Origin: an uncultured Gammaproteobacteria bacterium
GTDB taxonomy: Bacteria > Patescibacteriota > Patescibacteriia > JACPL01 > CAZRYK01
DNA length: 64,000 bases
Direction of reading: 5' to 3'
Assembly: GCA_964604315.1 (NCBI GenBank)
Contig: CAZRYK010000001.1
Coordinates: 2,459 to 66,458, forward strand
The notes under the pieces are model-generated. The model saw only the letters and a program-made list of their open reading frames with translations. It was not told where the DNA came from and searched no databases. Every line of letters starts with the position of its first letter. Position 1 is the stretch's first letter. Positions 5,422 through 64,000 of the stretch are shown piece by piece. Position numbers and translations under genes: made by a program.

Positions 5422-5579
5422 TGTGTGAGTGTGAGTAGTTCGCCCGCCTTTGCTAGAGCTTCGGCGAGGCAAGTATTTAGGGGTAAACTTTGCTCAAGAG
5501 GTTTTAAAAATGTTCTGCCTTGCGCTAAGTACAAAATACTAATTACGCATTACTCAAACTTTGCGTGAGCAAAGTTTAC
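5422..5579 (-). repeat. tRNA 3'-flank repeat element, copy C
   Basis: Reverse complement aligns along its length with the elements at 58987-59156 and 62553-62708. Begins CGTAAACTTTGCTCACGCAAAGTTTG directly after the tRNA-Cys 3' end and ends ACTCACACTCACACA. Confidence 0.7.
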
Positions 5580-5581
5580 GG

Positions 5582-6269: not shown

Positions 6270-6515
6270 TTAATTAATCAAAAAATCACTTTCTTCAGCC
6301 GCGGGGAATAAATCTTGCGACCAATCCACCTGCACAATATACCAACCCGAGAACAAAAAGATCACCAGCGAGACAACAAGATAGGTTATAATCATATACC
6401 GCGTTGTCGAACTCATGAAACCAAACTTATAAATATGGTACAGGCTAAAAAAACTTCCCAAGATGTACCCCAGGATTCCAAAGGTATAAAGAATAAGCAA
6501 CAGACTGTACGTCAT
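6270..6515 (-). CDS. Hypothetical small membrane protein
   Basis: 81 aa; two TM helices; stop overlaps the ruvB start. Confidence 0.4.
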
Positions 6516-7534
6516 AAAAGCGTTTGCAAATGCGCGGGCGGCACGCGTTTTAAATGTTCATAAGCTCGCTTAGTCGCCATGCGTCCACGAGGTGTGCGGG
6601 TTAGAAAACCTTTTTGCATAAGAAACGGTTCAATCACATCTTCCAACGTTTCAGTTTCTTCGCTCGTTGCCGCGGCAATGGTAGAAAGCCCTACGGGTCC
6701 GCCGTCAAATTTATCCATAATCGCTTCTAAAATAGCCCGATCCATGTGGTCTAGTCCTTCGTCGTCAATTTCCAGTTGGCGCAAAGCATGCTCGGTTAGG
6801 CTTTCGGTAATGGTATCATGTTGCGACACTTGCGCAAAGTCACGAACGCGGCGCAAAAGCCGATTGGCAATGCGCGGTGTACCGCGCGACCGACGAGATA
6901 AGAGAGAGACCGCGGACGCTTCAATGGCTATTTGCAACAACCGCGCAGAACGCACAAGAATATCTGCCAAATCCTGCGCGTCATAATAGGACAAACGAAA
7001 ATGATGCCCAAAGCGATCCCGCAATGGCGAAGATAACTGACTCAACCGCGTGGTGGCGCCTACAATCGTAATCGGTGGAATGGAAAGCTGAATCGAGCGC
7101 GCGGCCATGCCTTTGCCCACAACCAAATCTAACACCCCGTCTTCCATGCAGGGGTAAAGCAACTCTTCAACGTTTTTTGGCAAACCGTGAATTTCGTCGA
7201 TGAACAAAATGTCGCCGGGCTGACAATTGGTAATAATCGCGGCTAAATCCCCAGCGCGTTCAATTGCCGGCCCTTGCGTTTGCCGAACGTTTCCTTGCAT
7301 CTCGGTTGCAATAACATGCGCCAACGTGGTCTTGCCTAAACCCGGCGGGCTCACCAGTAAACAGTGCTCTAACGGTTCCTGCCTTTGCCGCGCGGCTTGC
7401 ATAAACACTCGCAAATTGTCTTTCACTTGCTTTTGCCCAATATACTCGCCCAAACTTTTTGGCCGCAATGCGTGATCAAAAACCGCATCATCCGATTGTG
7501 CTTTCTTATCTGTTACGCGTTCCTCGATGGTCAT
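6512..7534 (-). CDS. ruvB: Holliday junction branch-migration helicase RuvB
   Basis: Walker A '[13 protein letters not shown]', 'DEIHGL', sensor regions; 340 aa. Confidence 0.92.
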
Positions 7535-7544
7535 ATATTATATA

Positions 7545-7660
7545 GTTTCAGCTGTCAGCAGACCCGCCTGCCATTTGCCTGTCATGGCGGGCAGGCAGCA
7601 GTCAGATTTTTGAAGTAATTTTTTTCCGATCACTGACAGCTGATGGCTGACTGCTGGTTA
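7545..7660. repeat. Intergenic inverted-repeat element of the CAGCTGTCAG / CTGACAGCTG / GCTGACTGCTGG family
   Basis: CAGCTGTCAG at 7549-7558 and CTGACAGCTG at 7633-7642, with a GC-rich inner palindrome. Related motifs occur at 16801-16868 and 49268-49380. Confidence 0.45.
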
Positions 7661-7727
7661 TTCAAGTATAGCACATTAACAAAATAGCTAAAACTAGCTA
7701 AATTTAAGGCTATCACCCCCGCTCATA

Positions 7728-7756
7728 TTGACAAAAACGAAATTCAGTGCTACAGT
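7728..7756 (+). promoter_or_regulatory. Sigma70-type promoter (TTGACA-17-TACAGT with upstream TG)
   Basis: TTGACA at 7728-7733, 17-nt spacer, TGCTACAGT at 7748-7756. No plus-strand CDS follows. Confidence 0.5.
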
Positions 7757-7763
7757 ATGAAGT

Positions 7764-7892
7764 TATTTTGGTGAAAAGGCCTCGTTAACCTGCGGTCACG
7801 ACAAGCATGGGGACTATTCTCTGGGTCAAGAGGTTTCGACTTCTTTATTGCATGGAATAGTCTTCTTGACTGCAGGTTAGTGGGGCTTTTTT
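7764..7892 (+). ncRNA. Candidate small RNA: long irregular hairpin ending in a U-tract
   Basis: 13-bp closing helix TAACCTGCGGTCA (7786-7798) / TGACTGCAGGTTA (7867-7879). Inner helix GACTATTC/GAATAGTC. Ends GGGGCTTTTTT at 7882-7892. Confidence 0.4.
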
Positions 7893-7903
7893 AATTCCTC
7901 GGA

Positions 7904-8012
7904 GGGGAAAACCCTCAAGGAAGGGTTTTCCCCTTCCGACGCTCCTCCGACGAAACGTCGGGGTCACTGCCTCCCCTTTCCAAGGTGCCTTGGAGCGGAG
8001 AGTAAATCTCCG
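7904..8012. repeat. Array of four perfect GC-rich hairpins
   Basis: GGGGAAAACCCT..AGGGTTTTCCCC; CCGACGAAACGTCGG; CCAAGGTGCCTTGG; CGGAGAGTAAATCTCCG. Confidence 0.4.
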
Positions 8013-8060
8013 TCCAAGGCGAAGGAGTAAAAAATTTGCAAACGTGAAAGTCCTCTCGTT

Positions 8061-9911
8061 TTATTGCGTTTTGGCTTTACCCACTAAACACACGGCCTGC
8101 CAGGGCTTATATTTGGATGTAAACGTGGTTTCTTCTTTGCGACCATCGGCGTACTCTACGCTATAATCAAACGCTGTCGATGTTCCGCGATGCGCTTTTT
8201 CAATACACTTGGTCTCGCCCGGAGCCAAATCTTCGGTTTCAACATTTTTTAACGGTGGCGGGTCTACACATGCGCCCACACGCGTTTCGGATTGCGCAAT
8301 TTTTCGCCCATCCTTGGTGCCATAAAACGCAACGGTAAAATCATCGCCTTTGATTTCGGTTTCAATTAAAATCCAATGTCCCGTGTCATTTTTAAAACGG
8401 TAGTCCGGCGCTGGGTCATAAATGGTAGCATCTGTCCCTGGCCGTCCTTTAGTATCATTGTAATACGAAACAACATAACTATGATTGCGCCGTTGGGTTA
8501 CCGGCAGGCCCGATGCCAGCGTTGCACGGAAAACGGTTGTACCAAACTGGCACGCTCCGCCGCCAAATTCCGGAACCGTTTTGTCGCCTTTAATCACCAG
8601 TTCCGGCAACCAGCCATCTTCCGGACCAAAGTCGCCCAACACTTTTAACAACGAAAATTCTTCGTCCGGCGCAACCAACGTGCCATCAATAAGACTGGCG
8701 CCATTGGCAATATTATGACGGCGATTTTTTGGGCTACCGGCAAAGTTAGAACGTCCCACGCCTAACAATTCTTTAATGCCTAAGTTATTGACATCGGTGT
8801 TCGTGACGCGCGGTAAAACCTCTTTAACCACAACGGAAACGTCGCGCCGCGAGCTTGTTAACACCGCGTCTTTCGTCACTTCATAGGTTTGCGATTGATC
8901 GACTTCCCGCCCCGCACGACTTTCTTGAAATTCTGCAACCTTGCCGTCTTGCATGCGAAACTTTCCTTCCTGCGCTGGCAAGTCAATTTCTGCGGCGACT
9001 TTTTTTAAAAAATTCCCCACGCGTTCTTCCTGTAAATGTAAAAACACATCTTGCGAAGACACACCCAAAACCGCTTGCCCGGTGGATTCGTCGTATTCCG
9101 GTGCAGAGGTGCCTAATGCCAACCATGTGCGATATTCACTTTCCGGCACATGCCATTGTTGATCTTCAAAAATAAAAGTCGGCAAGCCCGCCGAGACCAT
9201 GTCTTCTGCGCGCTGAATCATTTTTTCTGCATTGGCTTTGGTGATCGAGGGAATATCGTCATGCAAACTTAACACCACTTCTTCGTTGCGAAGGGTAAGA
9301 ATTTGCGATCGCACATTGGTAACCGCTTTTGGCAGTTCCAAACTCTTCCCGATTTTTTCCCTTTGAATACTAAACGACAAATCCGGCATGACGATTAACT
9401 GCGCGTCCTGGCCCGGTTCTTCGTAGGTTTTGAATTGCTCCTCTAATAATGACAGCGCCTCTTTGCTGTTAAAGGTGGAACTTGTTTCAAGGAGCGTGGG
9501 TTCTAAGAGCAACGCAACATGTTGCCGCAATCGTTCCAGCGGGGTTCCTTTCCGCGCAACAGCAAAAGCGTTCGCCGCGGTTTTGCGGCTGTCGATAGCA
9601 TAGAGCGTAATGTCTAAATCTGCACTCACGCCCCATTCCGGGTTGAGGCGCAACTCGGTATCGTTGTACCGAACGCGAAAGCCCTGATGCTGGAGCGTAT
9701 TACTATACGTTTCCACGATTTCTTGCGCCTGCGCGGGCGTCTTCCACGCTAAGGATCGTTCCCCTAAAAACACGCCCGGAGCAATACGATTTTGAACCGA
9801 CACCTCTAACATTACCGCGCCGGCAACAGGCAACAATAGCAAGCCCACCACAAAAATGATGATACCAGGTTTCTTTGAAAAGGTTTTAGGCGACTTCTTT
9901 TGTTTTTTCAT
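8061..9911 (-). CDS. VanW-family protein
   Basis: N-terminal TM anchor; C-terminal VanW domain 'GGGACQFGTTVFRA'; 616 aa. Confidence 0.7.
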   Translation of the reverse strand: MKKQKKSPKTFSKKPGIIIFVVGLLLLPVAGAVMLEVSVQNRIAPGVFLGERSLAWKTPAQAQEIVETYSNTLQHQGFRVRYNDTELRLNPEWGVSADLDITLYAIDSRKTAANAFAVARKGTPLERLRQHVALLLEPTLLETSSTFNSKEALSLLEEQFKTYEEPGQDAQLIVMPDLSFSIQREKIGKSLELPKAVTNVRSQILTLRNEEVVLSLHDDIPSITKANAEKMIQRAEDMVSAGLPTFIFEDQQWHVPESEYRTWLALGTSAPEYDESTGQAVLGVSSQDVFLHLQEERVGNFLKKVAAEIDLPAQEGKFRMQDGKVAEFQESRAGREVDQSQTYEVTKDAVLTSSRRDVSVVVKEVLPRVTNTDVNNLGIKELLGVGRSNFAGSPKNRRHNIANGASLIDGTLVAPDEEFSLLKVLGDFGPEDGWLPELVIKGDKTVPEFGGGACQFGTTVFRATLASGLPVTQRRNHSYVVSYYNDTKGRPGTDATIYDPAPDYRFKNDTGHWILIETEIKGDDFTVAFYGTKDGRKIAQSETRVGACVDPPPLKNVETEDLAPGETKCIEKAHRGTSTAFDYSVEYADGRKEETTFTSKYKPWQAVCLVGKAKTQ

Positions 9912-16800: not shown

Positions 16801-16868
16801 CAGTCTTCAGCCGTCAGCGGTCAGTGATTTTAAAAACCTTCTATTAATTACTGACTGCTGTCTGCTGA

Positions 16869-18751: not shown

Positions 18752-18912
18752 GAGCTCCTTTCAATAATCGCTTTCTTGCCATTTTGGATGATCGTGAGAG
18801 CGAAACGCGTAAAGAACGAGGAGGAATAGCGAAACTATTCTGACGAGTTCTGAATGCGTTGTAGCCTCATGAGCGCCAAAAGGGCTGAATCGGGATTATG
18901 GAAAGGAGCTCC
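18752..18912. repeat. IR-bounded conserved structured element, copy 1 (homologous to 58607-58772)
   Basis: Terminal IR AGAGCTCCTTTC / GAAAGGAGCTCC. Shared core GACGAGGAGGAATAG-hairpin-CTATT..GACGAGTTCTGAA.G.GTTG.AGGCC. Lies 26 nt upstream of the rpsF start. Confidence 0.5.
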
Positions 18913-43698: not shown

Positions 43699-43737
43699 AT
43701 GCTCGTATCGTATCAAAATTCCTCTCTTTGGCAAAGT

Positions 43738-43920
43738 TATAGACCTCACATTATGAAATAGGACTTAGAAATACAAAAACAAGATGAGATGCGACGGGTT
43801 GGAGCAAGAAAAAAGAGGAAGTGTAGCCATAGCTACATTGAGTGTTTTTTCTTGGGAAACCCGAGCAGATCGCTTGCTTTTTGTATTTATGGAGTACTCT
43901 TTCATAGGGTGAGGTCTATA
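43738..43920. mobile_element. MITE-like near-palindromic element with about 45-bp imperfect terminal inverted repeats, flanked by TA
   Basis: TATAGACCTCACATTATGAAATAGGACTTAGAAATACAAAAACAAG ... CTTGCTTTTTGTATTTATGGAGTACTCTTTCATAGGGTGAGGTCTATA. Central palindrome TGTAGCCATAGCTACA. A second copy starts at 63895. Confidence 0.5.
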
Positions 43921-43956
43921 CCTTGGCAAGAGCTAAGCTCTTGCCAAAATCAAAAT

Positions 43957-58606: not shown

Positions 58607-58772
58607 TTTAGAGCTCATCTCAAAAATAGCTTTCAAGACATTTGAGATGCCATTTGAGCCGAAACACTTGAAGGACGAGGAGGAATAGTGGTACTATTGC
58701 GACGAGTTCTGAAAGTGTTGCAGGCCAAATGGGGCTAAAATGGCCGGAAGATTATTTTTGAGATGAGCTCTA
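58607..58772. repeat. IR-bounded conserved structured element, copy 2 (homologous to 18752-18912)
   Basis: 20-bp perfect terminal IR TTTAGAGCTCATCTCAAAAATA / TATTTTTGAGATGAGCTCTA. Same conserved core, with hairpin GAATAG-TGGTA-CTATTG. Confidence 0.5.
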
Positions 58773-58912: not shown

Positions 58913-58986
58913 GCGCGCTTAGCTCAGTTGGTTAGAGCGTTTGCTCGACACGCAAAAGGTCGGAAGTTCGAATCTTCCAGCGCGCA
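58913..58986 (+). tRNA. tRNA-Val (anticodon GAC), with unusual C at position 33
   Basis: Acceptor GCGCGCT/AGCGCGC, D arm GCTC..GAGC, anticodon stem TTTGC/GCAAA with loop TCGACAC, T arm GGAAG-TTCGAAT-CTTCC. Confidence 0.65.
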
Positions 58987-59156
58987 CGTAAATTTTGCTG
59001 ACGCAAAGTTTGGGTAATGAGTAATTAGTACTTTGTACTTAGCGCAAGGTAGGATATTCTCAAAATATCTTGAGCAAAGTTTACCCCTAAATACCCGCCC
59101 GCCACGCAAGCCGAGCATGCGAGGCGTTGCGGGCAGGCCAATTACTCACACTCACA
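58987..59156 (+). repeat. tRNA 3'-flank repeat element, copy V (includes GC-rich palindromic module 59094-59137)
   Basis: Starts CGTAAATTTTGCTGACGCAAAGTTTG right after the tRNA-Val discriminator; ends ACTCACACTCACACA, overlapping the last codons of vapC. Confidence 0.7.
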
Positions 59157-62552: not shown

Positions 62553-62708
62553 ACAACACGTACCGTATGGTACGTGGTCCACGTAAACTTTGCTCACGCA
62601 AAGTTTGTGTAATGAGTCATTCGTAGTTGATACCTAGCGCAAGGTAGAATTTTCTTAAAATCTCTTGAGCAAAGTTTACCCCTAAATACAAACTACTCAC
62701 ACTCACAC
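62553..62708 (+). repeat. tRNA 3'-flank repeat element, copy A
   Basis: After a 28-nt hairpin (ACGTACC-GTAT-GGTACGT) that re-duplicates GGTCCA of the tRNA end, the sequence CGTAAACTTTGCTCACGCAAAGTTTG...ACTCACACTCACACA aligns with copies V and C. Confidence 0.7.
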
Positions 62709-63894: not shown

Positions 63895-64000
63895 TATAGA
63901 CCTCACACTATGAAAGTGAACTTAGAAATACAAAAACAAGATGAGATGCGACGGGTTGGAGCAAGAAAAAATACGAAGTGTAGCCATAGCTACATTGAGT
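63895..64000. mobile_element. Second copy of the MITE-like element (truncated by the window end)
   Basis: TATAGACCTCACACTATGAAAGTGAACTTAGAAATACAAAAACAAGATGAGATGCGACGGGTTGGAGCAAGAAAAAA...GTGTAGCCATAGCTACATTGAGT aligns with 43738-43845; again preceded by TA. Confidence 0.45.

Follow-up and report, generated by a model that had tools for sequence, protein, structure and literature searches.

The gap between ruvB and a gene for a VanW/PG_binding_4 protein in this genome raises the question of whether the strong promoter lying in it drives an RNA gene of its own and, if so, how such an RNA might act. Patescibacteria (CPR) are a large, mostly uncultivated group of bacteria with tiny genomes in which, as far as we know, hardly any regulatory or structured RNA has been described. 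The 64-kb stretch of DNA analyzed here (the window) belongs to a sparsely sampled member of this group; this organism or its relatives are represented in the DNA runs SRR12113385, SRR12113422, and SRR22388340. In the window, ruvB (6512-7534) and the VanW gene (8061-9911) are both encoded on the minus strand, and the candidate sRNA lies between them on the plus strand, divergent from ruvB and convergent with the VanW gene. This arrangement agrees with an earlier sequence-only reading of the locus, which had placed the next gene (from 8061) on the opposite strand.

The promoter had been described as a near-consensus TTGACA-17-TGcTACAGT, and it was read directly as such in the sequence of the plus strand. 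The -35 hexamer TTGACA occupies 7728-7733 and the extended -10 element TGcTACAGT occupies 7748-7756 (TG at 7748-7749, TACAGT at 7751-7756), with a 17-nt spacer separating the -35 and -10 hexamers. This site (10/12 plus TG) ranked first in the promoter scan of the region, which returned four promoter-like sites versus 0.9 expected. From the position of the -10 element, we infer a 5' end at 7762-7765 and a 3' end within the U run; promoter geometry and the U run thus delimit a predicted transcript of approximately 126-131 nt (7762-7892, plus strand). The hairpin ends with GGGGC followed by six U residues (7887-7892, the last base being 7892), and the closing helix together with U6 appears to act as the sRNA's own intrinsic terminator. 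The window hairpin was not flagged by the terminator scan of the region, which we attribute to the loop limit of that scan (3-8 nt), because this limit excludes a 120-nt hairpin. No plausible ORF was found downstream on the plus strand, where the only ORF of at least 30 aa is a 58-aa TTG ORF antisense to the next gene, and the claim that no CDS follows the RNA therefore stands.

Downstream of the promoter, a long hairpin spans 7773-7892 with a minimum free energy (MFE) of -58 kcal/mol versus -33.1 ± 3.7 kcal/mol for 200 shuffled sequences (z = -6.69), none of which was as stable. Both helices quoted in the sequence-only reading were found to be correct: TAACCTGCGGTCA (7787-7799) pairs with TGACTGCAGGTTA (7868-7880) over 13 bp including one G.U, and the inner helix GACTATTC/GAATAGTC pairs exactly. 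The closing helix is, however, longer than had been claimed, comprising 26 pairs (7773-7798/7867-7892) that extend into the A run and the U run, and the U6 tail therefore pairs with the upstream A run. In the MFE fold, the 5' strand of this helix (stem 1, 7773-7798) ends with the invariant closing CA (7797-7798) and is followed by the invariant unpaired loop CGACAAGCAU (7799-7808), the longer of the two sides of a 10x1 internal loop. The lone unpaired base opposite the 10-nt loop is U7866, within the conserved UCUUG (7864-7868). Stem 2 is built from a 5' strand at 7809-7820 (GGGGACUAUUCU), which shows compensatory changes, and a 3' strand at 7854-7865, as seen in both the MFE fold and the alignment; its first pairs (G-C, G.U, and G.U/C) are conserved, and the conserved block CACGACAAGCAUGGG spans 7797-7811. 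Above stem 2 stands the apical stem-loop AAGAGGU-UUCG-ACUUCUU (7828-7845), with the conserved pairs G7833-C7840 and G7832.U7841, and the 3' strand of the closing helix plus U6 (7867-7892) completes the hairpin. All of these elements lie on the plus strand.

The conservation of promoter and hairpin that the sequence-only reading had named as a check was observed in a close relative. The window RuvB has one relative at 88% amino acid identity, the next best being no higher than ~62%. This relative, a Logan contig (L059), carries the same RNA between VanW and ruvB, and 104 of 104 consecutive RNA nucleotides are identical to those of the window. The refuting outcome named in that reading, a region lacking conservation even in close relatives, is clearly contradicted. 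The two ruvB genes share 80% of their nucleotides, with 96% identity at second codon positions and 47.5% at fourfold-degenerate sites, so that the RNA is more conserved between the two genomes than the second codon positions of ruvB. L059 keeps the -35 and TG-10 elements, and the promoter spacer and flanks diverge. Within the hairpin, only four bases differ, all of them in the 5' half of the closing helix, and at three of these positions G.U pairing with the unchanged 3' strand is kept.

The surroundings of the RNA also differ between the two genomes. Between the sRNA and the VanW stop codon, three GC-rich hairpins (e.g., GGGGAAAACCCT/AGGGTTTTCCCC) occupy 7895-8030 of the window and are missing in L059, where only 27 nt separate the end of the VanW ORF from the 3' end of the sRNA; the window stretch looks like an insertion that also altered the VanW C-terminus. 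On the other side, the ruvB promoter and start codon are separated by a repeat cluster (7535-7660), which is absent from L059 and marks the exact point at which two short-read contigs of the same organism break. Absence from L059 indicates that the hairpin-rich stretches 7535-7660 and ~7895-8030 are not part of the sRNA element. The short palindromic repeat CTGAC(A/T)GCTG forms clusters of inverted pairs at 7549-7656, 16808-16860, and 49275-49350, with 12 matches in the window versus 1.5 expected. In L059 (2140-2200, minus strand), ruvB is apparently leaderless, with TGcTATACT 8 nt before the ATG, and in the window (7535-7680, minus strand) the inserted repeat cluster supplies its own TATAAT directly before the ruvB ATG.

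Other repeats were observed elsewhere in the window. An element of ~108 nt occurs in three copies ~88% alike (5468-5580, minus strand; 58985-59094 and 62580-62689, plus strand), directly 3' of three different tRNA genes (Cys, Val, and Ala), and holds a 14-nt inverted repeat (GTAAACTTTGCTCA...TGAGCAAAGTTTAC). This tRNA-adjacent element had no Rfam match at the gathering threshold and may represent either an RNA structure of the tRNA trailer or a small mobile element targeting tRNA 3' ends. In addition, MITE-like elements of ~160 nt (18752-18911 and 58609-58772) and ~210 nt (43726-43932) have terminal inverted repeats of 36-40 nt, with copies 71-94% alike, and a further copy (63895-64000) runs off the window end. 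The sRNA itself is present once in the 64-kb window, and this single copy, together with its syntenic position in nine loci, rules out a repeat element or MITE.

Homology searches with the window VanW returned one identical protein (P0121) and proteins of at most 43% identity that were mostly labeled Patescibacteria, Kerfeldbacteria, or Komeilibacteria. A covariance model (R1) built from the first five copies of the RNA detected it in all nine Patescibacteria loci retaining VanW..ruvB, including the window and L059, always in the VanW-ruvB gap and on the strand opposite both genes. Scores of 61-81 bits were obtained for L061, L058 (two tandem modules), L229 (Kerfeldbacteria MAG, GCA_002784945.1), L233, L234, L235, and L236, and the position of the RNA is fixed down to VanW identities of 35-43% (amino acid). 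The signature TTGACA-17-TGnTAnnnT precedes the RNA in 9/9 of these loci, with spacer sequences that differ among them, and an intrinsic terminator follows it in all but L229, where no clear terminator was seen downstream; no ORF is conserved. Predicted transcripts range from ~130 nt in the window through ~190-235 nt in L233 and L234 to ~420 nt in L058. The full-length transcripts of L233 and L234 fold as a leader, a long hairpin, and a terminator (z = -7.0 and -9.5, respectively).

The genes around these loci form a conserved block (HSP20 - three small genes - VanW - gap - ruvB - 84-aa gene - bPH_2 - queA). We take the family to be vertically inherited within the HSP20 .. VanW - RNA - ruvB .. 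queA block of Kerfeldbacteria-like Patescibacteria. A VanW query against metagenome contigs yielded one locus, L058, in which two tandem RNA modules sharing only the core lie behind a single TTGACA-17-TGaTAAGAT promoter (8797-9250, minus strand); an outer helix surrounds the second module, and its sequence (CCUGCAGGUUAGUGG) corresponds to that of the closing helix in the window. In L061 (6160-6495, minus strand), the RNA terminator is followed on the same strand by an uncharacterized 111-aa ORF that has a promoter-like site of its own and no counterpart in the window. A RuvB query of genome contigs returned matches of at most 60% identity from many phyla, none of which carried the RNA according to the model; these RNA-negative loci include L007, L008, and L056, from the Saccharibacteria, Komeilibacteria, and Patescibacteria group.

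Additionally, exact-pattern scans of IMG/VR for the conserved core gave ~170 loci, and four distinct contigs of uncultivated phages among them scored with R1 (L086, L091, which is the same as L106, L093, and L195). As a specificity control, ~150 viral loci containing a chance core 12- or 13-mer plus TCTTG scored nothing with R1. The phage copies have stem sequences that are unrelated yet complementary, on contigs with a GC content of 0.37-0.66. L086 (GC 0.66) has its own promoter, TTGACG-17-TAGGGT, 39 nt upstream with spacing as in the window. The motif lies within a recombination gene cluster in L091, upstream of a small ORF and, after it, GroES and GroEL in L093, and, in L195, between two ORFs and on their strand; reading these ORFs without annotation, we take them to be the large terminase and portal genes. 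A blastn search of two phage copies against GenBank phages returned only AT-rich chance matches outside the core. The family occurs sporadically in phage contigs.

The structure was evaluated in an alignment of a small sample of 14 sequences, namely 10 Patescibacteria modules (five of them closely related) and the four phage copies, made with MAFFT in a structure-blind manner and not fitted to the fold. All 14 copies, folded individually, gave the same architecture. The RNAalifold consensus contained three helices with 23 pairs, 16 of which showed compensatory double changes. Paired cells amounted to 91.5% versus 70.3% with shuffled partners, and none of 500 shuffles reached the observed value or matched the observed covariation score or number of pair types; when the partners were slid by 1-3 columns, paired cells dropped to 39-54%. 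Five of the seven loop-adjacent pairs of stem 1 change on both sides among the 14 sequences, and seven of the ten pairs of stem 2 carry compensatory changes. Compensatory changes in excess of both the shuffled and the slid controls indicate a conserved structured RNA. The strand comparison gave 91.5% paired cells in the sense versus 78.9% in the antisense orientation, 49 G.U cells versus 9 A.C cells, and an MFE for the window copy of -59.6 kcal/mol versus -34.4 kcal/mol for its reverse complement. The promoters, the use of G.U over A.C, and the greater stability of the sense strand thus fix the RNA strand.

Invariant positions were found mainly around the internal loop, with the consensus 5' CA-CGACAAGCAY-GRGG / 3' YUC-U-UG. 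CACGACAAGCA was invariant in 14/14 copies, although for the phage copies this invariance is partly forced and is not independent evidence, because they were found by requiring the exact core. On the 5' strand, the invariant or near-invariant sequence is CACGACAAGCA(U/c)(G/a)GG, and on the 3' strand it is UCUUG. In the MAFFT alignment, TCT was invariant and TG nearly so; the one copy that departs from this, L091, is visibly misaligned, and UCUUG appears in it as well when the model-based alignment is used. CGACAAGCAY, the 5' side of the 10x1 loop, was unpaired in 13 of the 14 independent MFE folds. The conserved CUUG might instead pair with CAAG of the loop, bases whose invariance leaves no covariation to judge by. 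A second conserved element lies ~20-25 nt further up the hairpin, where an apical step consists of a G-C pair in 13/14 copies (alignment columns 74-84) and a G.U pair in 12/14 (columns 73-85), and the pairs neighboring it covary.

The comparison with known RNA families gave no match. In the whole window, Rfam 15 at the gathering threshold identified only six tRNAs, and a permissive scan (E<=10) of 7500-8100 returned only chance-level matches of the miRNA/snoRNA type, without any 6S, SRP, or other bacterial sRNA model. Scans of L058, L061, L086, L091, L106, L195, and L233-L236 (E<=10, some at E<=0.1) likewise gave only chance-level miRNA/snoRNA matches, and full-text literature searches for the core sequence and for CPR/Patescibacteria ncRNAs returned nothing relevant. 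As the permissive scans found no family, neither 6S nor SRP is supported, and the RNA appears to be a structured family without an Rfam 15 match, in line with the second option of the sequence-only reading, a novel sRNA.

Several known RNAs share part of this design. Bacterial SRP RNA (4.5S, RF00169) is likewise a single hairpin (~110 nt) that depends for its function on conserved internal loops, including one strongly asymmetric loop (several nucleotides opposite one) that is recognized by protein in SRP. The new RNA differs in lacking a GNAR tetraloop (its apical loop is UUCG in the window and variable in other copies) and the AGCAGCC/symmetric-loop motif, and its conserved loop lies near the base of the hairpin rather than the tip. 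Protein-titrating sRNAs of the CsrB/RsmZ type are also stand-alone transcripts with a repeatable binding module, as in the tandem of L058, but the new RNA has no GGA motifs and has one module per RNA in most genomes. The CsrA SELEX consensus is ACARGGAUG, with GGA essential; the core is similar, with GCA in place of GGA. Orphan RNAs such as raiA and OLE were also found by conservation and covariation and have no assigned function, but they are much larger. T-box Stem I and hairpin-ribozyme-type hairpins share a basal internal loop and a conserved near-tip element a set distance apart, and by analogy this spacing suggests bipartite recognition or docking. Unlike these, the new RNA has its conserved loop on the 5' strand, has no K-turn, distal T-loops, antiterminator, or Rfam match, and is not located upstream of a gene in Patescibacteria. 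CsrA sites, K-turns, T-boxes, Y RNAs, tmRNA or RNase P fragments, integron attC sites, retron msr, phi29 pRNA, put antiterminator RNA, and preQ1 aptamers were considered and dropped because their defining motifs are lacking.

Promoter, hairpin, and terminator kept jointly at the nine Patescibacteria loci (except for the terminator in L229), together with the covariation, support the stand-alone and possibly novel sRNA of ~125 nt that had been proposed, as a predicted transcript. It is mainly this conservation that sets the element apart from a chance combination of promoter and hairpin. We consider it very probable that this is an independent sRNA gene and that it represents a new family matching nothing in Rfam. 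Taking all features together, we tentatively favor, at slightly less than an even chance, an sRNA of a new family that serves as a binding platform acting in trans. Conservation is concentrated in the loop, its closing pairs, and the distant G.U step, and the rest of the hairpin keeps only its pairing, which points to a three-dimensional recognition site; the reuse of such a site in the L058 tandem and in GC-diverse phage contigs favors an RNA that binds a factor in trans. The invariance of the loop-closing pairs and the second conserved element in the apical stem also agree with this reading. Protein binding as the mechanism is put forward a little more cautiously, and both the partner and the action in trans are what we infer. 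The near-consensus sigma-70 promoter with its extended -10 would drive a hairpin RNA of ~130 nt, ended by its closing helix plus U6 as a terminator of its own that is probably bidirectional. The variable, covarying helices would hold the invariant asymmetric loop and the apical G-C/G.U step in place, and a conserved cellular factor, most likely a protein, might recognize a bipartite site made up of the loop and, perhaps, the G.U step. The RNA would thus act in trans as an RNP partner or decoy, and the phage copies may tap or titrate the same host factor. No consistent neighboring gene for an RNA-binding protein was seen beside the RNA loci, and the three phage contigs in which the motif precedes a same-strand ORF would also fit a cis-acting element.

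The platform reading has to be weighed against a base-pairing sRNA, in which the 10-nt loop CGACAAGCAU would be a seed for AUGCUUGUCG-like mRNA sites; such a seed could mask start codons, because the complement of the loop begins with AUG. A stand-alone unit from promoter to terminator with a long, single-stranded, and fully conserved stretch is what such an sRNA would look like. However, it is rare for a seed to stay unchanged from Patescibacteria to phage contigs with a GC content of 37-66%, and the conservation of the loop-flanking pairs and of the distant G.U step indicates a three-dimensional motif rather than a linear seed. In addition, no recurrent complementary site (<=1 mismatch) was found near gene starts in the window and the loci of eight relatives, a small part of each genome, in which the exact loop-complement matches were the RNA genes themselves. 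We therefore regard base pairing as rather unlikely.

A self-contained fold, either a new self-cleaving ribozyme or, in phages, a ligand aptamer acting in cis, is slightly less probable again. Invariant nucleotides confined to an internal loop that is held by covarying helices are a typical signature of such RNAs, and the patchy occurrence in bacteria and phages, the lack of a constant gene neighbor, and the tandem arrangement in L058 would also fit. In L091, L093, and L086, the motif lies 18-75 nt upstream of a same-strand ORF, and cis use in these phages is possible. The downstream phage ORFs, however, have no PHROG match and no function in common, and no Rfam ribozyme or riboswitch model matched. 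In the Patescibacteria, the RNA is followed in 9/9 loci by a terminator (non-coding sequence in L229), beyond which lies a convergent gene or, in the case of L061, a separately promoted ORF, so that there is nothing to regulate in cis. A riboswitch or cis-regulatory leader is thus ruled out for these bacteria, no gene being part of the same transcription unit in any of the nine loci.

The sequence-only reading had likened the overall shape to 6S RNA, and a minimal 6S-like RNA would bind the sigma-70 holoenzyme, with the loop as an open-promoter mimic or pRNA template. Like 6S RNA (SsrS, RF00013), the new RNA has a strong promoter of the housekeeping, abundant-transcript type, a long irregular hairpin closed by pairing of its 5' and 3' ends, and possibly a protein-sequestering role; moreover, the predicted transcripts of relatives reach ~190-235 nt, and no Rfam 6S match was found in the ~150 kb of Patescibacteria sequence scanned. 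The 6S-like shape was nevertheless not borne out. No 6S model matched even at E<=10, and the folds of the 14 copies and of two full-length transcripts show a one-sided 10x1 loop in an otherwise near-continuous helix, in contrast to the large two-sided central bubble of 6S RNA. The window RNA is also only 130 nt long and has a long invariant block, and, to our knowledge, no such extended invariant sequence is common to the 6S RNAs of different phyla. A 6S-like role is thus improbable.

It is more improbable still that the hairpin is simply a large bidirectional terminator or insulator between VanW and ruvB, its promoter serving only to block read-through by antisense transcription. In both the window and L059, the U run is carried by the closing helix itself, and an A run on one side of the hairpin is matched by a U run on the other (in the window, the A run at 7774-7777 is a U4 tract on the opposite strand), so that both strands present a hairpin plus U tract; the hairpin probably also terminates the convergent VanW gene there. 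The L059 VanW stop lies 27 nt from the hairpin. In L061, L058, and L233-L236, however, the core is followed at a distance of 118-137 nt by a separate small hairpin plus U run, which in L234-L236 has an A run next to it, and the conserved hairpin is therefore not there to terminate. Terminators keep neither an invariant unpaired loop (~10-11 nt) nor 104/104 nt identity, the G.U pairs make the opposite strand far less stable, and the phage contigs carry the motif in other contexts. Finally, a micro-protein starting at the AUG of the conserved block (7807-7809, in the unpaired loop; 17 aa in the window, MGTILWVKRFRLLYCME) has a negligible probability and was rejected, as the AUG is not conserved (ACG in L233, AUA in L058A), the ORF varies from 5 through 12 and 16 to 17 codons across loci with unrelated peptides, no Shine-Dalgarno sequence precedes it, and substitutions track base pairing rather than codons.

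The perfect promoter, the conservation, and the fixed position in a streamlined genome make an important function of this RNA likely, and its presence in phages suggests a host function that it pays to hijack. Beyond the binding platform favored here, it is conceivable, though unlikely, that the RNA represents a new catalytic or RNP-forming class, acting as a subunit or regulator of an undescribed Patescibacteria process and captured by phages to manipulate their hosts. Examples of such a class would be a self-cleaving ribozyme or a minimal RNA that works as 6S RNA does, with RNA polymerase or some other core machine as its target, and the invariant 10x1 loop may be its active or recognition site. 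The invariant loop also gives pull-downs, in-line probing, and phylogenetic profiling a concrete starting point. Should its partner turn out to be a core machine, or the RNA itself catalytic, this would be a new RNA class; otherwise, it would still be a well-supported new family for Rfam.
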